DNA from: a virus
Taxonomy: Duplodnaviria > Heunggongvirae > Uroviricota > Caudoviricetes
Length of the DNA: 23,664 bases
Strand: one strand, 5' to 3'
Virus record (IMG/VR): IMGVR_UViG_2663763326_000004
Location: 1-23,664 of that record
The notes under the pieces were generated by a model. The model was given only the letters and a program-made list of their open reading frames with translations. It made no database searches and was not told the origin of the DNA. A program made the position numbers and the translations under genes. Shown one piece after another: positions 282 to 16,952 of the stretch (positions within the stretch are counted from its first letter, which is position 1; each line of letters opens with the position of its first letter).

Positions 282-314
282 AAAAAAGCCCCTCGACTGA
301 GGGGCTTTCTGTTT
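282..314 (-). terminator. Intrinsic terminator downstream of ogr (bidirectional-looking)
   Basis: Perfect 7-bp GC-rich stem GCCCCTC-gact-GAGGGGC flanked by an A-run on one side and a T-rich run on the other. It lies 5 nt past the ogr stop on the minus strand. Confidence 0.55.
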
Positions 315-318
315 GTAA

Positions 319-537
319 TTACATCCACATAATTTGCTGCCCTGACGGCAGCGGGTGCGGCCTTACGGCGTGGACTTCTCCCGGCTTCACAATGTATCGC
401 TGTACCGACTCATAAGTGATGAACGTGGCGCTGCAATTCACGTTCTGACACTGGTGATAACGCTCTTTTGTCGTGTCAGTGATATAGCGACTTGTACGCG
501 CATGTGCGGCATGCTGGCATAAAGGACAATGAAACAT
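319..537 (-). CDS. ogr: Late-gene transcription activator Ogr (zinc-finger, 72 aa)
   Basis: The ORF 319..600 contains MFHCPLCQHAAHARTSRYITDTTKERYHQCQNVNCSATF with a Cys-x2-Cys...Cys-x4-Cys zinc finger, which matches P2 Ogr as I recall it. The true start is the internal ATG at 537; the 21-aa upstream extension is not part of Ogr. Confidence 0.9.
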   Translation of the reverse strand: MFHCPLCQHAAHARTSRYITDTTKERYHQCQNVNCSATFITYESVQRYIVKPGEVHAVRPHPLPSGQQIMWM

Positions 538-618
538 CGCGAGCACCTCTTCCGGTTTTGTTGATGGTGCCATTTTAGTTAATTTATCCTTATAAAACAA
601 ACAGATAAATAAAAAACA

Positions 619-1242
619 TCACTCATCATCTTCTGTTTCGTACTCCACATCAGAAAGCCTTACCTCAAGCTCCAAAGACGTCGTGAAGCCGCTATTATTG
701 AGAAAATGTGTAACCTTAGTGATGGTCCAGTCCTGCTCGTCTATGACGCGCTTAAAGCCTGACACTTTAACCGGTGTTTCCGTGTAAATATCTGCCCGTC
801 CGGTAGCCAGGCTGATGGAGAACTCTGCTACACCCCGTTGCAGTTTATCCCACTTCGCCTGAGCGGCACGCATGGCCTGTGCTTTCGTGGCATATACCGT
901 GGTCAGGGCAAAAACGTTGTCAGCCTCACCGGCCATGTATTCACCTTCGCGCGCTTCCGGTACTTTTGGCGCTTTCTTCTGCCTGACCGGTTTCGCTTTC
1001 GGGTGCTCCAGTGCGCGCAGGTGTTTCTCTTTCTTTTTGCGTTTCAGTTTTACCTTCTGCTTTTGCGGCTTCGGGTCTTTGGTGTGTAACCACTTTGCCG
1101 TTACGCCGGTGTAGGCTCCACGGTCAGCAATCGCAAAATGATGACGGTCGCCGTCGCTGCGGGTGATGGTGACCTGCTGGATTTTTTTACCGCTGGCCGT
1201 CACCCCCTGCCCCGCTTGCGTATTTTCATGAAAGGAGATCAC
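619..1242 (-). pseudogene. D: Tail protein D (late control gene D), C-terminal fragment, separated from its N-terminal half by the IS insertion
   Basis: The ORF runs from the IS junction to a stop at 619. Its first codon is a GTG formed partly by IS-terminal sequence, and its position between U and ogr matches P2 gene D. Confidence 0.8.
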
Positions 1243-1350
1243 TCAATAACTTCCATCGAGATCGGGTAATAACATTTGAACAGATCGCTGAATAACATCG
1301 ATGGAGATCACTTTTGACTCATTTTGTTATTCAGTGATCTCCATCAATGT
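1229..1350. repeat. IS21-family left terminal repeat region (multiple transposase-binding repeats)
   Basis: A terminal GGAGATCACTCAATAAC is followed by an internal inverted copy GTTATTCAGTGATCTCC and by ATCGATGGAGATCAC. Confidence 0.55.
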
Positions 1351-1409
1351 TATTGGAACTTCACAGGTGTGTTGATCTGTATCTTTTGCCATTCCGGTAA
1401 AGGATACCT

Positions 1410-2951
1410 ATGCCAACAGTTCCAATTTCTATGAGAAAACTTAAAGAAATTCTTAGGCTTAAATACGGTGTTGGACTCAGCCATCGACAAATTGGTCGTA
1501 GTCTTGCAATCTCCCCTTCCGTTGTATCCAGATATGCTAATCGGGCGGCTCAACTTGGCATAAAGCAGTGGCCCTTACCTACAGGATGGGATGATACAAA
1601 ACTAAAACATGCGTTCCTTCAGACCCAGGTTAAGATGAAGAAGCACTCTCTGCCTGACTGGGCTACAGTACACCGGGAACTGCGTAATAAATGCGTGACG
1701 CTGCAGCTACTCTGGGAAGAATACTGTGAGCGTAATCCAGGCGGTTTTTACAGCTATAACCATTACTGCCGGATGTACCGTGAATGGCTCAAAACCACTT
1801 CACCATCAATGCGTCAGGTACATAAAGCTGGCGAAAAACTTTTCGTTGATTACTGTGGACCTACCGTTGGCGTTACCGACCCTGAGACCGGAGAAATAAG
1901 AACTGCTCAGGTCATCGTAGCTGTTCTCGGGGCATCAAGTTACACATGGGCAGAGGCCACCTGGTCTCAGCAGCTTGAAGACTGGGTGATGAGTCATGTT
2001 CGCTGCTTCCAGTGGTTGGGTGGCGTTCCTGAACTTGTTGTTCCGGACAATCTGAAAAGCGCCACATCCAGGGCATGTAAGTATGATCCTGACGTTAACC
2101 CTACCTACCAGCAGATGCTTGAGCATTATAATGTCGCAGTTTTGCCTGCGCGGCCACGTAAACCGAAAGATAAAGCCAAAGCTGAAGTTGGCGTTCAGGT
2201 TGTTGAACGCTGGATCATGGCCCGAATCAGGCATGAGATCTTCTACAGCCTTGCATCGCTTAATCAGCGCATTCGGGAGTTGCTGGAAAGACTGAATAAC
2301 AAAATAATGCAGAAGTTGGGTTATTCACGTGCAGAACTCTTCATCCAGCTTGATAAACCCGCACTGAAGCCTCTTCCTGAAGCCAGTTACAGTTACACCC
2401 TGGTGAAGAAAGTCAGAGTTCATGCCGATTACCACGTGGAAATCGACAAACATTACTACTCGGTTCCATGTTCGCTGTTAGGCCAGCAACTGGAAGCATG
2501 GATCTCCGGAGAACTGGTAAGACTCTTCAATCAGGGGCAGGAGGTTGCTGTGCACCCGCGCAAGCGTACTTATGGCTACAGTACCCGCAACGAGCACATG
2601 CCTGAAGCTCATCGACAGCATGCCACCTGGACGCCAGAGCGTCTTCTGGAATGGGCGGGGCACATAGGCAGTGAAACTCATAGTTATGTGCTTCATATAC
2701 TGAACTCTCGTCCACATCCGGAACAAAGCTATCGCTTCTGCCTTGGACTCCTGAACCTTCATAAAAAATACAGTAAAGCCAGACTTAATGCAGCATGTGC
2801 AAGAGCTCTGAAAACAAAGGTATGGCGTCTGTCAGGTATTAAATCGATCCTGGAAAAAGGTCTGGATAAACAACCTGTTCAGGATCCAAAACCAGATCTG
2901 TTATCCACGATGGAACACGAAAACGTACGCGGCAGTGAGTATTACCACTGA
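1410..2951 (+). CDS. istA: IS21-family transposase IstA (513 aa)
   Basis: N-terminal helix-turn-helix region followed by an integrase-like catalytic core. It is immediately followed by istB, the typical IS21 arrangement. Confidence 0.9.
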   Translation: MPTVPISMRKLKEILRLKYGVGLSHRQIGRSLAISPSVVSRYANRAAQLGIKQWPLPTGWDDTKLKHAFLQTQVKMKKHSLPDWATVHRELRNKCVTLQLLWEEYCERNPGGFYSYNHYCRMYREWLKTTSPSMRQVHKAGEKLFVDYCGPTVGVTDPETGEIRTAQVIVAVLGASSYTWAEATWSQQLEDWVMSHVRCFQWLGGVPELVVPDNLKSATSRACKYDPDVNPTYQQMLEHYNVAVLPARPRKPKDKAKAEVGVQVVERWIMARIRHEIFYSLASLNQRIRELLERLNNKIMQKLGYSRAELFIQLDKPALKPLPEASYSYTLVKKVRVHADYHVEIDKHYYSVPCSLLGQQLEAWISGELVRLFNQGQEVAVHPRKRTYGYSTRNEHMPEAHRQHATWTPERLLEWAGHIGSETHSYVLHILNSRPHPEQSYRFCLGLLNLHKKYSKARLNAACARALKTKVWRLSGIKSILEKGLDKQPVQDPKPDLLSTMEHENVRGSEYYH

Positions 2952-2962
2952 TACGGGATCCA

Positions 2963-3712
2963 ATGATGAATCATCTTTACGAACAACTGACCGCACTTAA
3001 ACTCACCGGCTTCCGTGATGCGCTTAAAAAGCAACTTGCTCAACCGGGCACATACCAGGAGCTGGGCTTCGAAGAACGCCTGTCATTACTGACAGCAGAA
3101 GAACTAACCTGCCGTGAAAACAGGAAGGCAGAGCGTCTGATCAAACATGCACGGTTCAGACTTAATGCTGAGTTATCAAAGCTGGATTATCGTAACAATA
3201 GAGGGCTGGACAGGGCCCTCATCCGTTCACTCAGTCAGGGAAACTGGTTAACCCTGAAACAAAATATTTTACTGACCGGGGCCACCGGCAGCGGTAAAAC
3301 GTTCCTGGCATGTGCACTTGGTCATAATGCCTGCCGACAGGGATACAAGGTCTACTATTATCGCCTTAAAGCGCTGATGGAACAGTGCTATCAGGGGCAT
3401 GCTGATGGAAGATACAGCAAACTTTTGACCAGGCTGAATAATAGCGATCTGCTGCTTCTGGATGACTGGGGGCTGGAACCTCTCTCATCAGAACAGCGTA
3501 GCGACCTGCTGGAAATAGTGGATCTGATGTACCAACGAGGCTCAATCATCGTAGTGAGCCAGTTGCCGGTGGAAAACTGGTACAAAATGATCGGAGACTC
3601 CACACATGCGGATGCCATCCTAGATCGACTGGTTCATGGCAGTATCAAGATCGAACTTAAAGGAGAATCAATGCGGAAAATACAATCTCCGTTGACCGAA
3701 GGAGATCAGTGA
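2963..3712 (+). CDS. istB: IS21-family helper ATPase IstB (249 aa)
   Basis: Walker A motif GATGSGKT and Walker B motif LLLLDDWG, in a DnaC/IstB-like protein directly downstream of istA. Confidence 0.9.
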   Translation: MMNHLYEQLTALKLTGFRDALKKQLAQPGTYQELGFEERLSLLTAEELTCRENRKAERLIKHARFRLNAELSKLDYRNNRGLDRALIRSLSQGNWLTLKQNILLTGATGSGKTFLACALGHNACRQGYKVYYYRLKALMEQCYQGHADGRYSKLLTRLNNSDLLLLDDWGLEPLSSEQRSDLLEIVDLMYQRGSIIVVSQLPVENWYKMIGDSTHADAILDRLVHGSIKIELKGESMRKIQSPLTEGDQ

Positions 3713-3744
3713 AGGTAATTTAAAAACGGTTCTGTGAAAGTGAC

Positions 3745-3785
3745 ACGAACCGATCTCCATCGATGTTACTCACCGATCTCCTTCA
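3745..3785. repeat. IS21-family right terminal repeat region
   Basis: Two direct copies of CCGATCTCC (ACCGATCTCCATCGATGTTACTCACCGATCTCC) at the right IS end, inverted relative to the left-end repeats. Confidence 0.55.
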
Positions 3786-4368
3786 CGGTAATACGCACCG
3801 CTTTGAGAAACAACAATTTTCCCATTTTTACCGACACCTCACCGCCGTTGCGTTCTGCAAGACGGGTCAGGAATTTCGCATCAGACTCCTGCGACTGGTC
3901 GATGTGCGGGATTTTAATTCCGGCCAGTGACGGAGCGACACTGGCTTCCAGCCTGTTACGGGAGGCTATCGCCTCAACAATCGCACCGAGCGTGGTGTCA
4001 TGCCAGGAGCCTTCACGGCGGGAATTGAGCGTCCCGCGGAAATCTGCACTCCGGGCGCGGATGGTGACCACATCCGGCGCGCCCCGGTGTTCAACCTCAT
4101 CAACGGTGAATTTCCCTTTGCATACCAGGGCAAAACCTTTCCAGCCGATATACACCGTCAGGACAGCGCCACGAACCGGCAGCCCGACCTGCCCGTCGGC
4201 ATCGTTCAGTTCAATATCAAGCTGGTCAGCCTCAAAGCCCCGGTTATCCGTCAGGGTCATGCTCATCAGACGGTCACTGATATTGCCGGTAATATCCCTG
4301 CTGTCGAGCATCAGCATGTAATCCGGCGTCAGCGTACTGCCTGCATCAAATGTCAGTGCATCCAGCAT
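3766..4368 (-). pseudogene. D: Tail protein D, N-terminal fragment truncated by the IS21-family insertion
   Basis: Starts MLDALTFDAGSTLTPDYMLMLDSRDITGN, with its ATG overlapping the U stop (TAATG). The last few codons (KEIGE-stop) are read from IS-terminal sequence. Confidence 0.8.
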
Positions 4369-10081: not shown

Positions 10082-10939
10082 TTAATGTAAAATTAACAAT
10101 TGATTCAGACGCTTATGTAATTTTGTGGTTCTAAATGTATGATGATCGTAACTCATACGCATATAACTATCTATCTCATCCAGACGCATGTTCTTATTTA
10201 CAGATATATCAGTTTCATACATCATTTTTAATATACATGTAAAGTCATGACCATTGCATATAGAAAAATGATCTGGCGACATTAATTCTAATTTACGCAT
10301 TTCATTATATAAATTTTTCGCATTAAAATCCTTATCAGTACGACTCCTGCTAAGCACATGATTTATATATTTGGTTTCATCAACTACAACATCTGTCCTG
10401 TTAATACTTACAAAATTCCTGTAATTCATTCCTTTGAAATTAAGATTGCTATGTGTAAGATAATTGTACCATTTGAGAAGTCCGATTTTATAGCATGCAC
10501 AAAGGATGTTCATCTTTACATCCTGACAGAATATATCGGCCAATTCCCCTTGAATTAATTTTCTATCTGTATGTGACATAATGAATTTATCAACCGCACC
10601 ACCTTTTACTAACATCATTTCAAGGTCATGAGCATCAGTATAAAAAATCCCCTCGTGATTTATTCCGCTTAACTCATCAAAGTCCGCGTCACATACACCA
10701 TACACAGCATTATTACCTGCACGACGTAATTGACTAACAGCCAATATTACTTCACGTTTTCCATTTTCAGGTGATTCATAAATGATTCTATTATCAAGCC
10801 GATATGCATTGAAAAATCGGATATCTGAAATGCCCTCAACCACAATCAATATACAACGTTGATACATTTCATTTCTGAATAAAAGCATCATACTACTCAA
10901 CCAATCATCTTCGCGAACAGCATTGCGTAATGACATCAT
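10082..10939 (-). CDS. DUF4435/TOPRIM-like (OLD-family-type) putative nuclease, AriB-like effector of a PARIS-like system (285 aa)
   Basis: N-terminal ILIVVEGISD (TOPRIM glutamate) and downstream VYGVCDADFDE (DxD metal-binding motif). GC content is very low, and the ATG follows the upstream ATPase stop with no gap (TAA ATG). Confidence 0.7.
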   Translation of the reverse strand: MMSLRNAVREDDWLSSMMLLFRNEMYQRCILIVVEGISDIRFFNAYRLDNRIIYESPENGKREVILAVSQLRRAGNNAVYGVCDADFDELSGINHEGIFYTDAHDLEMMLVKGGAVDKFIMSHTDRKLIQGELADIFCQDVKMNILCACYKIGLLKWYNYLTHSNLNFKGMNYRNFVSINRTDVVVDETKYINHVLSRSRTDKDFNAKNLYNEMRKLELMSPDHFSICNGHDFTCILKMMYETDISVNKNMRLDEIDSYMRMSYDHHTFRTTKLHKRLNQLLILH

Positions 10940-12184
10940 TTACTCGTTTCCTTCTGAAAGCTGTTGGCTTTCATTTCTATTTCTAATCATTTCATATAGA
11001 TCGTATGTTAATTCCCAATTCTTACTAATTACTTGTGGTGAATGAGTAGCAATAATGACCTTTTCATACTTGTTAATCTTTTGTATTTTTTTGAGAGAAT
11101 CCAAGAAAGTTTGTTGCCAGGCGACATGTAATGATATTTCTGGCTCGTCTATAAGAATTACTTTTTGTGAAACAAAATCGAAAATCAAATTAAAAAGAAG
11201 AACTATTTGGTTCTGTTCACCTGATGAAAGCAAATTACGATCAATAACATCGCCATTGTGACTTTTGAAATAAAATCCGTTATCTCTATCAATCATCACT
11301 TTTTTAAAAGCTAAAACCTTTTCTTTCAAAATTGATTCAAATAAATCAATTTTTTGATGTAATGTCTGAAACGGTGACAATTTTCCAAGGGCATCTTCAA
11401 TATATAGATCCAACACACTTAGATATTCATTGCTACTATAAAAACTTGTGCTTTTTTGAGGCATTAGCTCGTTATCAGCCTGAATAAGGCCATAACGCAT
11501 ATAATGTCGACGTTTATCTTGAATACCATTTAAGCGATCTTGAATATTTTCTGATGAAAATCGTTTTGATTGCTCTAAACGCTCAAATAATCGAATAGGA
11601 AATGTAGCGTCTAATTTTTGTGATAATGCAGCGGAATCATCTTGTGCATTTTTCATTAAATATTTTAATTTTCTAGCACATAAGTCAATGACTGTTTCAT
11701 CAACAGCTTTGACTTGTAATCGATCTGCACATATAAAAGATACGTCTTCTTTCGATGTAATATGACTTAACACATCCGAAGATAATGGTTTATCAGTTCG
11801 TAATTTTTGTTTTGGTTTAACATCCCCCCTATGCAAGCTTACATAAAATAACTCTTCCATAATAGATTCATCTGTCTGTAACTTGAGTCTTTCTTCCGTT
11901 CTGTTTCCTGAGCTATTATCCAGATGATTCAATATTAAACCATCTTTATTGGTGTCATGAGTAATTGAAACAGAGCCACCTTGAAAATCAATTTTAATAA
12001 AATCAAAATTAAGTTTACAGAGAGCATTTAATTCATTTGTAAGAATACTATTGATGATTTTAAGAATCATTGTCTTACCATATCCATTTGGACCAGTAAG
12101 CATAGTAATTTCATTGTTATCCAAGGGAATTTCATAATCAAGGAGACCAAATAGTTTTTTTACTTTTAAATGTATCAATTTCAT
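10940..12184 (-). CDS. ABC/SMC-like ATPase (AAA_15/AAA_21 type), AriA-like sensor of a PARIS-like system (414 aa)
   Basis: Walker A GPNGYGKT, an ABC-signature-like LSSGEQ, Walker B VILIDEPE and an H-loop IIATHSP, with a long helical insertion between the nucleotide-binding halves. AT-rich codon usage is unlike the flanking phage genes. Confidence 0.75.
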   Translation of the reverse strand: MKLIHLKVKKLFGLLDYEIPLDNNEITMLTGPNGYGKTMILKIINSILTNELNALCKLNFDFIKIDFQGGSVSITHDTNKDGLILNHLDNSSGNRTEERLKLQTDESIMEELFYVSLHRGDVKPKQKLRTDKPLSSDVLSHITSKEDVSFICADRLQVKAVDETVIDLCARKLKYLMKNAQDDSAALSQKLDATFPIRLFERLEQSKRFSSENIQDRLNGIQDKRRHYMRYGLIQADNELMPQKSTSFYSSNEYLSVLDLYIEDALGKLSPFQTLHQKIDLFESILKEKVLAFKKVMIDRDNGFYFKSHNGDVIDRNLLSSGEQNQIVLLFNLIFDFVSQKVILIDEPEISLHVAWQQTFLDSLKKIQKINKYEKVIIATHSPQVISKNWELTYDLYEMIRNRNESQQLSEGNE

Positions 12185-12199
12185 ATCAACCTCGCAGAC

Positions 12200-12280
12200 G
12201 ATGAATTATAACCATTTATTACATGGCGCATATGAAATGCAATATATCATTGTCATGAGTTGCATTTCAAACATATGCCC
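12200..12280 (-). promoter_or_regulatory. Candidate sigma70 promoter(s) with an embedded inverted-repeat operator, upstream of the ATPase gene
   Basis: On the coding strand, TTGAAA, an 18-nt spacer and TATATT, followed by a second perfect TATAAT about 20 nt before the ATG and a GAGG ribosome-binding site. The inverted repeat GAAATGCAA-N17-TTGCATTTC brackets the first -35 and -10 elements. Confidence 0.4.
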
Positions 12281-13214
12281 CAACATCAATGCTAAATCCG
12301 TGATTAAAATTAATAAACTTCTGGTTTTTGCAAATAATTTCTTGCCCTAATAGTTTGGAAATACCTCTTTTAAATTTATAGTGAATAATATTACGCCCAT
12401 TTAGTTCTCTCTTTGCAGAACTGAACATGTCGGGAGCTACTGTGTGGAGAAACACTGAAACGATCGTTAGTGAATATTTGCACACTGGTGATAGTACTAA
12501 ACAGCCCTTTGGTCATGTCCGAAAAATAGTGACTCGTACAACATGATCGATGTGATAGCATTTATGACAGTGAAACATAACAATCACCTTTGAACATTTT
12601 CCATACGTGCATTATACCTATTAAATCTAAACAAAACAAATAGATATAAAATATTCATCCGCGTATCTTCATGCTCTCATATACCACATACGGGAGCCTT
12701 AACATCAAGTACTAAGCACGTCGTGAAGCTGTTTCCGTTAAGACGACTTTGCACTACTTGACTGATTAGCCATGCCTGCTTGTCTATCACACATTTAAAG
12801 TTTTTCATCGCTAACGTAGTTAGTCCATTCCCTTGAATGGCGTTTTACCAGTCTATATATGACAAATATCGTACTTTTTCCACATTCAGTCCAATTCATT
12901 CACCGCTCCCGATTCACCTACAACACCCTCTCAACGACGTTCTCTGTACCTGTAATACCGGCGCAAATTGCGTCGAAAATGTCGTTCTGCATCGCATAAA
13001 CCTTCATCAGATTTGGCCTACAATGCAGCGAATAGTCTGAAATTAAAAACCGATGATGATGGACTGTACTGTTCATGCAAGTCTGGTCGCTCTGTGCCTC
13101 ATCAAGGAATGAATAATGATCTTGGCGACGTCTACTCTTGGCACAGAGCGGACTGTCAGATTAGTTTTTACTCTGTGCCATAGATGAGTAATCTCACACC
13201 AGATCTAATACAAT

Positions 13215-13793
13215 TTATTGCGGCATTTCCGGCCATTCTATATCCGGAGCATCTTCCGGCTGAACGCGATTCAGTAACACACGGTATTTTTTCCAGTGTG
13301 TCAGGCTTAACTTTTCTTCCTCGGTAGCCATATCTAAATCGACAGCATCCTGCAGCGTGGCAATGATTTCACCTGCATATGCAATCTGCTCTTTCTTCTG
13401 AGACTCCGCCGCTCTGACAAGCGCATCACGCTCTGCATTCTCATCATTCACCCACGCATTTCCGTTCCATTTCTGATAATCCCCCTCCGGGGAAATGGCT
13501 GTCACGTCTGGAGGTAATGCGCCAAGTTCAGAAATATAAATGGCTGCTCCCGTTTTCGTTTCGTAGACAGTCTTTCCGCGATGATCTTCCATCAACTCCC
13601 ATTTCATTTCATCTGCATTGAAAACGGCTGCATAACCAGCAGGAATATCAGGTGGTGCAATATCTGTACTGTTTGCAGGCAGGCCAGTATACGGCGGAAT
13701 ATATGCATCACTTTCGCCAATAAACTCATTGGTTCCATCAAGTAAATTGAAAACGCGGATAGTTTGTGCTTCTGCACTCATTCTGAAAGCCAT
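13215..13793 (-). CDS. G: Tail fiber assembly protein G (192 aa)
   Basis: Directly downstream of H with its ATG overlapping the H stop (TAATG). Size and position match P2 gpG. Confidence 0.8.
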
Positions 13794-16411
13794 TATGCAA
13801 GCCTCACAATATAGTTAAATGCGATGTTTTTGACGGTGTTTTCGGTATTACCAGTAGCATTTACGGTAATGGAATGCCCGTGTGAGCCAATAGCAACAGT
13901 GTGTGAATGTGCACCAATACCAACAGTATGGTTATGTGCTCCAATGTCGACTGTATGTGCATGATTGCCTGATGAACTTGTAGTCGTAGCACCTTTATCA
14001 CTTCGCGGAACACCATAATCTGCACCGCCTGATTGCACGCTCACAGCAAAACCGACGGTATGTGTATGATTGCCAGAAGTATTGGTTGATTTTGTGCCGT
14101 GGTTAAACGTACTGACTGTTTTTGTCCCGTAATCAAATGAACTGGTCGTTTTCGTTCCTAAGTCCGTATTTGACGCACTGGCGCTGTGAGTATGCGATTT
14201 AATCCCGTCCTGTTCCTGTGACAATACGGCACGCCCACTGGCGGGTTTGCCCTTGATTGTCCAGCCGCGCATATCAGGAATAACACCAGAAGGATAGGCA
14301 ATAGCCAGTTTCGGATATGCAGCCTTATCAAACGTCTGCCCCTGCATGATCGCATAGCCTGCAGGTGGTGTATCTGATGGCCACGGCAGCGGAACACCTG
14401 GCGGAAACGCTTCAATATCTTTCGTCCCGTCAAAGGTTACGCCGTTAATTGTCCTTGCCGTTTTCAGCTTTGTTGCTGTAGCAGCATTGCCGGACAGTTC
14501 GCCTGAAAGACCGGCGCTGAAGGTTTGTTTCGCCGCCCATGTCTGGGCTTCGTCAATAATTGGCACACGTCTTGTGGTGATCGTGCGACTTCCCGGATTT
14601 CCTGAAATACGCACCATAAAAAAGCGGTAGTTCGCTTTACTTACAGTGCTGCGCCATACATGCATTGAGCGCCCCGCACCGGAATCATCACTCGGACCAA
14701 CTGAGATGTTTATCAGGTTGCCATCAATGACGCCCCAGTCCATACCTTCGGGAATGTTGGTCATGTTATCAAGCCGAACGGTTATCAGACTGCCCGGCAC
14801 AAAGTCGTAGGTCTGCCAGTCCAGGCTGGAGAGTTTTGCCACTGCACCGCCGATACCCAGATTCAGGGGAAGTGAATACGAGGTGTAGACTTCCCGCCAT
14901 TCGCTCCACGAGCTGCCGGTATAGACGCGCTCAAACGTGCGACCTTTAAGGGTTGCACCTGTTCCGGCAGTTGTATAACGCTGCCATACGTTAACACCAT
15001 CAAAGCGCCTCAACACTTCCAGAATCCCGAGGACTGTCACGCCGTTTCCGTCCAGTATTGGACCGTTGGTCGCTTTACCTGTAACGCTGTAAATACCTGG
15101 TGAAGTCACCTCATTCAAATCCCCGTCGTAATAACGACTCTCTGACTGATGACCGACTCTTAACCACGGTTCCCACTGTGGATTTGATGCATCCCAGCTT
15201 GCCGCAAGGCAGCGGACATACATATTTCCACGGCGAGTGGTATAACGTTGCGTTCTTCCATAATTCCCGCCTTCGAGGATCTCAAGCATCCCCTGAGCAA
15301 AGCCGCCTTCCTCTGGATAATTGCGTTCATATGAAGCTATAGCCGAGCTACTGTTACGCCATAAACCAAGATGCTCGGCGGCTCCAAGCGTATTCAGGTC
15401 TATAGTCGTACTCAAAGGGCGGGTAGCAGATTGAGTGTGACGCCATACGCCCCACGGACCATCAGTGCCATTCCACTTATTGGCGAGTTTACGCATGTAA
15501 ACATTGCCGTCTCTCGTGGTAAAGCGTTGCGTACCTGCAAAATTGCCGGCAGCAAAAACCTCAAGCACACCGACAGCATTATCTTCCGGGAAATTTTTCT
15601 CCAGTGTTGCGTTAGTTGAGGTAGCTTTAGACCAGATCCCCAGATAAGCCTTAACGGGACCAAATGTATTCAGGTCGGCATCAACCGGCATTTCGCCATT
15701 GTTTTTCATAAACGTCAGACTGGTAACGCCAACATTGTCCAGAAAAGCTGATTTATCCTGGATATCTGCACCATTCTGATTTTTCGCCAGACGTGAATTT
15801 GCGTTGTCATTTGCTGCCTTGACCGCTTTTGGCGTTGCCGCCAATGACTCACTGGTGCTGTTTGTTGCACTGCTTAACTGAGTAAAACCTTTTTCTGTCA
15901 GCGTGGCGTCAGGATGGCGGCGGGACTGCTCATGTTCTGCGATTTTGTCATCGACGTAATCCTGCGTCGCCATCACTGTGCTGGCATCAATACTCAGCTC
16001 AACGGACGCCACGTTACTGACAATAATAACCATGCGGCAGGTCTGCGCACGCCCGGAGCCTTCAGCGAGTTCAGGCTTATAGCTTTCTGCCATGTTGGCG
16101 ACCGCAATCAGTGTTCCGGCATCGTCATACAGACCAAGCTCACGCATCCAGAAGCCGCCCACTTCGGGCGGTACAACCAGTTCAGCCACGATATAGTTTT
16201 TATTCTTATTATCCACGCTGACTTTATTCAGAGCGTGACGCCAGACCTCATGCACCAGTTTCGTCTGACCGGCATCCGGCACCGGCAATTTGCCATTACC
16301 GTCACCCACGGCCATTGCAGACAGGTTTACTTTTTTCCCGCCGGGGACAGTGGCGGCTGCCAGCTTCGCGGCTCCGGCAGTAGTGATAACGGTTTTAAAT
16401 TTCGTGCTCAT
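13793..16411 (-). CDS. H: Tail fiber protein H (872 aa)
   Basis: Conserved P2-type N-terminus [30 protein letters not shown]. The central region has three tandem repeats of about 60-70 aa and the C-terminus has repeated HxH motifs (GNHTHT, GNHAHT, AHNHT, AHSHT, SHGHS). Confidence 0.9.
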
Positions 16412-16421
16412 TGTTTCTCAC

Positions 16422-16952
16422 TTATCCGGGATAAACAGTAATAACATCACCATCACAGACCACACCGCCTGTATACAGATAGCCGGGAATGTCCTGGATA
16501 ATGTTCAGGCCGATAAGGTGGCGACTTGCGGGTTTGGCATCGGCAATCAGCCGTTCCATTTCCAGATACATTTCCTCTGTGATACCGCTTTCCAGCACAC
16601 CGATATCAAGACGAAAGGTTCCGGCCGGGTCGTTTGTCTCCCACCATTCCTTTACGTTAATGAGATAGCCGAGCGGCTCCACCACACGCCGGATTGCGCC
16701 GACAGTGCCTTTATGACAGTGGATGAAATAGGCATCGCGGATAACGGCGCGTTTTGTCGCTTCCGGCCACTTTTCATCCCACCTGTCGACCGAAAACGCC
16801 CACGCCAGCCACGGCAGCAGATTTGCCGGGCAGGTGTCCGGGTTCCACAGCTCACGAATACTGACCGGCGTTTTTTCAATTTCCGCACAGGCTTTTGCGG
16901 CGGCGACCTCAAGCGGTGATGAGCCGGTCGGCAGCAGGCGCGAATCACTCAT
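16422..16952 (-). CDS. I: Baseplate assembly protein I (176 aa)
   Basis: 176 aa between J and H, matching P2 gpI. Confidence 0.85.
   Translation of the reverse strand: MSDSRLLPTGSSPLEVAAAKACAEIEKTPVSIRELWNPDTCPANLLPWLAWAFSVDRWDEKWPEATKRAVIRDAYFIHCHKGTVGAIRRVVEPLGYLINVKEWWETNDPAGTFRLDIGVLESGITEEMYLEMERLIADAKPASRHLIGLNIIQDIPGYLYTGGVVCDGDVITVYPG

Follow-up and report, generated by a model that had tools for sequence, protein, structure and literature searches.

The tail fibre gene H of a P2-like prophage (Peduovirus) is best explained as a mosaic, in which a P2-type N-terminus with a Phage_fiber_2 repeat (residues 1 to ~210) is followed by three tandem knob domains (residues 238-511), a conserved block (residues 512-634), and a tip of the type found in gp37 of phage T4 (residues 663-872). 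Together with the mechanism proposed below, this reading has a probability of about 0.9. The domain architecture, six conserved HxH motifs, the pairing with an assembly chaperone, and a hypervariable head are recognised by homology; trimerisation of the fibre, binding of iron, and the receptor are inferred. No evidence contradicting the assignment was found.

Genomic context of H and G

The gene lies in a window of 23,664 nucleotides, which is the whole stretch of DNA analysed. H (positions 13793..16411, on the minus strand like all features described here) is an intact open reading frame with an ATG start that encodes a tail fibre protein of 872 aa; its stop codon overlaps with the start codon of G (13215..13793), which encodes a tail fibre assembly chaperone of 192 aa (Pfam PF02413 Caudo_TAP, E = 5e-40). 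Both sizes are those given in an earlier, sequence-only reading of this DNA. A search against NCBIfam yielded no match for H or G. The open reading frames place the baseplate genes I, J, W, and V upstream of H, and the resulting order V-W-J-I-H-G is confirmed by the RefSeq annotation of an identical locus and by the map of P2. The DNA of H is 100% identical to that of Escherichia coli O25b:H4-ST131 strain 751, where the locus is annotated as a P2-like prophage and adjoins pflB; the exact protein is represented in RefSeq by an entry from this strain (WP_094248818.1, 'phage tail-collar fiber domain-containing protein').

The G+C content of the needle and head region of the tip and of G (~0.45-0.47) is lower than that of the neighbouring tail genes (~0.57-0.58), which is compatible with a foreign origin. 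A PARIS-like AriA/AriB pair resides in an island of low G+C content (0.31-0.39) that is located between the sheath gene and G. The spacer at 12185..13214 contains no open reading frame of at least 80 aa and has no match in Rfam, and Rfam gave no match to a structured RNA in the window.

A P2-type N-terminus with a different distal part

The N-terminal domain of H (residues 1-151; 15959..16411) is of the P2 gpH type (Pfam PF12571 Phage_tail_fib, E = 6.4e-58) and is followed by a Phage_fiber_2 shaft repeat (residues 170-211; 15779..15904; PF03406, E = 5.7e-21), a region that also matches tail fibre protein S of phage Mu (5YVQ/8JU3, residues 110-176). The homology of the N-terminal domain and the position of the gene after V, W, J, and I and before G are those of a P2 gpH-type fibre. 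P2 H (NP_046775, 669 aa) shares with H the first 207 residues (84.5% identity), the location in the V-W-J-I-H-G operon, and the downstream assembly gene, but the two proteins differ in everything past residue 207, where no similarity was detected; P2 H has neither the knob domains, of which a hidden Markov model finds no unit, nor the gp37-type tip. The identity between the two G proteins (39%) is likewise limited to the last 99 aa, and the suggestion of a host-range module distinct from that of P2 is borne out.

The sequence-only reading had also put P2 H at roughly 669 aa and H at about 200 aa more. The length is confirmed and the difference amounts to 203 aa, but the conclusion that H is an enlarged fibre does not follow, because P2 H matches only up to residue 207 and lacks knobs, so that the gap in length reflects a different distal module and not added repeats. 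Judged from the alignments, H is a different allele and not a lengthened version of P2 H. Other H proteins of Peduovirus are of equal or greater length (874 and 919 aa), and residues 1-673, all three repeats included, are 92-95% identical in more than 20 records of Peduovirus listed from E. coli and Yersinia, which largely makes this part a standard allele and speaks against a repeat-expanded H.

Three tandem pyocin knob domains

The repeat array of H (residues 238-511; 14879..15700) consists of knob 1 (residues 238-329; 15425..15700), knob 2 (residues 330-422; 15146..15424), and the diverged knob 3 (residues 423-511; 14879..15145). The three repeats first noticed in the sequence are therefore real and had been placed roughly correctly (about 14900..15600), but the unit is longer than the 60-70 aa then assumed, because the recurrence of DLN (residues 246, 338, and 431) and of QR[FY]TT (residues 295, 388, and 477) indicates a period of ~92 aa. 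BLASTP of H against itself detected no internal repeat at E < 10; the repeats emerged from Smith-Waterman alignments evaluated against shuffled sequences and from profile-profile comparisons. Knobs 1 and 2 are clearly related (z = 34.6 against shuffles; E = 1.7e-27 between profiles). The third copy scores lower against copies 1 and 2 (z = 3.9 and 2.1; E = 7e-6 and 5.5e-5, respectively) and retains the signature DLN...G.LEV...QRYTT...W..W.

The fibres of R-type pyocins were the first in which the knob fold was described. Pfam has no model for residues 212-671 of H, knob units included, and the assignment of the repeats to this fold draws on three other sources. Residues 226-662, modelled as a monomer by AlphaFold2 (mean pLDDT 65; ~60-86 in the knob blocks), are predicted to have five to six strands per repeat, and a Foldseek search with this model retrieved 6CL5 (E = 4.6e-6) and 6CL6 (E = 1.1e-5), which are fibres of R1 and R2 pyocins. 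A profile built from 21 non-redundant repeat units matched the PDB sequences of Pa193 gp47 (E = 3.3e-6), 6CL5 (E = 0.0022), 6CT8 (E = 0.012), and 6CL6 (E = 0.039), whereas a profile of only three sequences reached 6CL5 at E = 4.3. Moreover, many homologues are labelled by NCBI as 'pyocin knob domain-containing protein'. The predicted antiparallel beta-sheets of five or six strands within ~85-90 aa and the profile relationship to solved knobs identify residues 238-511, at the level of sequence and model, as three tandem pyocin knob domains. The fibres of R1 and R2 pyocins (6CL5, 6CL6, 6CT8/6CU2) resemble H in their tandem beta-sheet knobs of ~85-90 aa and in forming a trimeric fibre whose protein also contains an HxH iron site, as H would. 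They differ from H in having two knobs instead of three, in their low sequence identity (12-22%), and in their lectin-like foot, which takes the place of the gp37-type needle at the end of the fibre.

The repeats could be taken to mean that H is a P2 H protein in which a unit of 60-70 aa has recently multiplied in tandem, enlarging the protein and creating a new host range; the excess of 203 aa over P2 H and the presence of three related units in tandem would agree with such a scenario. However, P2 H contains no knob unit and has no similarity to H past residue 207, and the copies share only 24-38% identity, from which it follows that their duplication is old. DNA repeat searches found only a single short direct repeat between knob copies (22 nt, 82% identity), and a search for recent duplication at the DNA level recovered merely a 27-nt repeat at the His boxes and short repeats at chance level. 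A survey of copy numbers already refutes the expansion: three knobs are present in 99 of 120 database homologues, in the remaining 21, the sequence starts or stops within the array, and four knobs occur in none of the 120. The hidden Markov model likewise finds exactly three units in H, in the H proteins of the P2-like phages NC_070906 (919 aa) and P24A7b (874 aa), and in gp37 of the T4-like phage Lv5cm, and none in gp37 of T4. With three copies in every untruncated relative, T4-like gp37 included, a recent expansion is highly improbable, and the sequences characterise the knob duplication as old and fixed, with no expansion of repeats in H.

A conserved block without known relatives in Pfam or the PDB

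Residues 512-634 (14510..14878) form a block that is conserved in homologues, including gp37 of Lv5cm, but has no match in Pfam or, with single-sequence or profile queries, among PDB sequences. The block was considered as a fourth knob, but profile-profile comparison revealed no relation to the other three. An AlphaFold2 model of residues 505-672 was discarded (mean pLDDT 43), and the same part remains below 70 in the model of residues 226-662. Although rather unlikely, the block may represent a new trimeric fibre fold, which together with the knobs could form a second, lateral sugar-binding site, allowing the fibre to read two surface features ~100 Å apart, in analogy to what has been proposed for R-pyocin fibres. 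The linker that follows (residues 635-671; 14399..14509) marks the mosaic junction and carries a motif of 23 residues (not shown) that is found also in gp37 of Lv5cm (residues 68-106).

A gp37-type tip and its chaperone

The C-terminal part of H comprises a collar domain (residues 672-735; 14207..14398; Pfam PF07484 Collar, E = 2.1e-10 for residues 672-719) and a needle with a head (residues 736-872; 13796..14206), both of which align to the structure of the T4 gp37 tip (2XGF). Residues 663-872 of H match residues 23-242 of the 2XGF chain with 61% identity (E = 3e-77), which, as a sequence match, places the likeness of these 210 residues beyond chance. H and G resemble T4 gp37 and gp38 in the succession of collar, needle, and head, in six of seven HxH motifs, in the C-terminal strand, and in the location of the chaperone gene directly downstream. 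T4 gp37 differs from H by an additional HxH at residue 915 and an unrelated head segment, and its residues 1-806 are not homologous.

HxH motifs of H are located at residues 740, 782, 817, 826, 835, and 844. The sequence-only reading had counted five in the last 100 aa at intervals of about 10 residues; the count is correct, but regular spacing (9 aa) is restricted to the last four, which are visible at the DNA level as a tandem repeat of 27 nt (13887..13945), and the gap between residues 782 and 817 measures 35 aa. The 2XGF fragment contains seven such motifs (T4 residues 883, 915, 929, 966, 980, 989, and 998). The six motifs of H align with T4 residues 883, 929, 966, 980, 989, and 998, whereas the site at T4 residue 915 corresponds to a single histidine. 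Bartual et al. reportedly described in 2010 that HxH motifs from the three chains of T4 gp37 form octahedral His6 iron sites on the fibre axis. Iron binding by HxH motifs in the needle of T4 gp37 is documented (PMC6116203), and by analogy, those of H probably bind iron as well. The resemblance of the histidine-rich end to a metal-binding fibre tip, already pointed out from the sequence, thus turns out to be homology to the needle and head of T4 gp37.

Within the head, a hypervariable segment (residues ~785-816; 13964..14059) presumably forms the receptor-contact surface. Its identity to the corresponding segments of T4, Lv5cm, and P24A7b is only 30-45%, compared to 80-100% in the conserved flanks, and a wider dip in identity extends over residues 761-820 against all relatives. 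The segment corresponds to residues 932-965 of T4, which have been called the receptor-specificity region (PMC9659904), and host-range mutations of T4 map to this part of the head (PMC5221442). Because the T4 segment is unrelated in sequence, its specificity for OmpC and LPS is not transferable to H. A head segment that differs by one substitution belongs to a fibre of 1107 aa encoded by phage Chlobot, whose gene adjoins lom and is therefore that of a lambdoid side tail fibre.

The product of G is 99% identical to G of P24A7b, 74% to ORF5 of phage phiNP, and 28.7% to gp38 of T4 (E = 5e-20); these similarities identify it, from its sequence, as an assembly chaperone of the Tfa/gp38 type that matches the tip of H. 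Homology in collar, needle, and head, colinear HxH motifs in the sequence, a variable segment between conserved flanks, and a gp38/Tfa-type chaperone downstream are all features of a gp37-type tip.

Mosaic relationships to other phages

Windowed comparisons locate the joints of the mosaic. The H protein of NC_070906 is 90-100% identical up to about residue 650 and has no similarity thereafter, with the collapse at residues ~650-670. T4 gp37 matches H in the tip alone. Gp37 of Lv5cm is 40-72% identical over residues 221-620 and 65-88% in the flanks of the tip. As the distal subunits of the long tail fibres of T4-like phages, gp37 of Lv5cm and JK23 share with residues 226-872 of H the knobs, the block at residues 512-634, and the tip (54-75% identity), but their N-termini attach to gp36 instead of a P2 baseplate, and their head segments differ.

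P24A7b H (YP_009877362, 874 aa) has the same architecture over its full length, with three knobs and a gp37-type tip. Identity is ~100% over residues 1-180, drops to 35-75% across the knobs, rises to 90-100% at residues 621-760, falls to 45-62% at residues 761-820, and is 100% at residues 821-872. G is 99% identical. The head segment (residues ~785-816) is wholly different, although the sequences on either side of it (GNHTHT and GNHAHT) are identical, a sequence pattern that fits cassette exchange at His boxes. This idea reportedly goes back to Tetart et al. in 1996. Invertible or multi-cassette loci such as the G segment of Mu or the C segment of P1 were considered as well, but there are no inverted repeats of at least 18 nt in 12185..16500, G is not followed by an ORF for a second cassette, and the annotation of the 31-kb locus includes no invertase.

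A further set of relatives are the receptor-binding proteins of the T4/lambda type (phiNP ORF6/ORF5, lambda Stf/Tfa, and SEN5) treated by Magaziner and Salmond (2022), which share with H and G a conserved tip of ~215 aa, a specificity segment that varies, and a neighbouring chaperone similar to gp38. In phiNP, the tip is 77% and the chaperone 74% identical, but ORF6 has only 282 aa and lacks the knob array; H is known here from its sequence.

Proposed function and status of the prophage

The N-terminal domain would fix a trimer of H to the P2-type baseplate, and the knobs would form globular beads of ~90 aa that aid the register and folding of the three chains; by analogy to proposals for pyocins, they may also provide side-on contacts to sugars. 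In the tip, the three chains would be intertwined, with each HxH motif contributing two of the six histidines around one buried iron, so that six iron ions per trimer would stiffen the thin needle. The head (residues ~785-816) would be located at the far end and bind a receptor on the cell surface, probably a porin and/or the LPS core, by analogy to T4 (OmpC/LPS; PMC5221442) and phiNP (LPS Glc-II; PMC9659904). G would fold the tip, and the tip and G would travel together as one exchangeable host-range cassette.

Three other readings concern the use of the fibre. HxH motifs occur also in metalloenzymes, and those of H could constitute a catalytic or exposed metal site, such as the active site of a hydrolase, instead of a buried structural iron; their one-to-one correspondence with the iron-coordinating motifs of T4 gp37 within the 210-aa alignment and the lack of matches to enzyme families in Pfam and NCBIfam leave very little room for this view. 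Since knobs first became known from R-pyocins, the locus might specify a headless killing particle (R-type tailocin), but genes for capsid, scaffold, portal, terminase, lysis, and replication are present in the same element, and knobs are widespread in the fibres of true phages, which renders a tailocin equally implausible. A third possibility leaves the mosaic structure of H untouched but regards the gene as an unused relic of a defective prophage, whose fibre never enters infectious particles. The essential tail gene D is split into two pseudogene fragments by ISEc12 (an IS21-family element with istA/istB; window 1410..3712), which probably renders the prophage defective and may prevent it from assembling tails in this host. 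By contrast, both H and G remain intact and have copies with 100% identity in other genomes, the sequenced phage P24A7b harbours close relatives of these alleles, and gpD could be supplied by a P2-like phage resident in the same host. The chances of H being a relic in this host are about even.

Distribution and implications of the mosaic fibre

Mosaicism of P2 H with the fibres of other phages was reportedly recognised by Haggard-Ljungquist et al. in 1992. Among phage records, the tip of H matches 650, in 410 of them with at least 80% of the tip covered, and the matches comprise P2-like, lambdoid, and T4-like phages and Felixounavirus. In a set of 5426 complete genomes of E. coli, H and G together are covered by at least 80% in 97, with copies that are 100% identical in other genomes, and the DNA of the knob array is covered to the same extent in 264, in some cases on plasmids. 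The last 405 nt of H, which include the head, are covered by at least 80% in 65 genomes; any part of this query is found in 3463 of the 5426, but the partial matches listed cover only the conserved terminal ~135-150 nt.

The module of gp37-like tip and gp38-like chaperone has been described in more than 200 phages (Magaziner and Salmond 2022; PMC9659904), the pyocin knob is listed by RBPseg as a mobile fibre domain (PMC12143355), and chimeras of P2 gpH and gp37 have been built artificially (PMC9594776). H is thus an ordinary patchwork fibre gene, whose recognisable modules are already known from solved relatives or published descriptions, and with the protein already in RefSeq, it carries little weight as a discovery. 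Its value lies in providing a clean natural example of moving host-range cassettes: the same receptor head is found here on a P2-like fibre and in Chlobot on a lambdoid side tail fibre, whereas P24A7b carries another head between identical His-box flanks. Engineers have made chimeras of P2 gpH and gp37 by hand, and the allele marks a junction that is already used in nature.

Module exchange in the tail fibre

The tail fibre H (872 aa; 13793..16411, minus strand) ends in a tip whose receptor head segment (residues 785-816; window 13964..14059) differs by only one residue from that of the side tail fibre of the lambdoid phage Chlobot (1107 aa; 298..3621 of locus L007). The related Peduovirus P24A7b carries an unrelated head segment, yet the His-box flanks are 100% identical to those of the present H. 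Judged by these alignments, the head segment represents a clear example of cassette exchange between phage families. In the same tip, a 27-nt tandem DNA repeat (13887..13945; 2.2 copies, 81% matches) codes for the 9-aa His-box units (GAHxHTVxI), and such repeats could favour unequal or homeologous recombination inside the needle.

The DNA of the pyocin knob array of H (14879..15700) is present also at 34 places on plasmids in E. coli records (e.g., NZ_CP173593.1, 92,790 bp), and a homologue (P0003) is located on a plasmid contig of 93,890 bp. These plasmids are possibly P1-like phage-plasmids, with fibre genes that contain the same knob module.

Insertion element and defence cargo

Tail gene D (619..4368) is interrupted by the IS21-family element ISEc12 (about 1410..3712), which comprises istA (1410..2951) and istB (2963..3712); the gene pieces on both sides are annotated as pseudogenes in RefSeq. 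Because the insertion splits gene D, the prophage is probably incapable of building tails on its own.

The assembly chaperone gene G is separated from the tail sheath gene by a low-GC island on the minus strand (10082..12184; GC 0.31-0.32), located where P2 carries its Z/fun cargo. The island encodes a 414-aa ATPase (AAA_15/AAA_21), which matches the PADLOC model of AriA (1.9e-25), and a 285-aa DUF4435 protein, which matches that of AriB (2.6e-21). On the basis of these model matches, the pair is classified as a PARIS-type anti-phage system. The AT-rich stretch of approximately 1 kb downstream of G (12185..13214; GC 0.385) contains no open reading frames of at least 80 aa in an ORF scan, has no match in an Rfam search, and is unannotated in RefSeq. 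The defence pair may have its promoter or leader here; alternatively, the stretch may be a leftover of earlier cargo.

Outside the window but in the same prophage, the gene of a HEPN-domain protein (29201..30523 of locus L006) is flanked by the portal gene on one side and a replication endonuclease gene on the other. This position is likely a second defence cargo site of the prophage.
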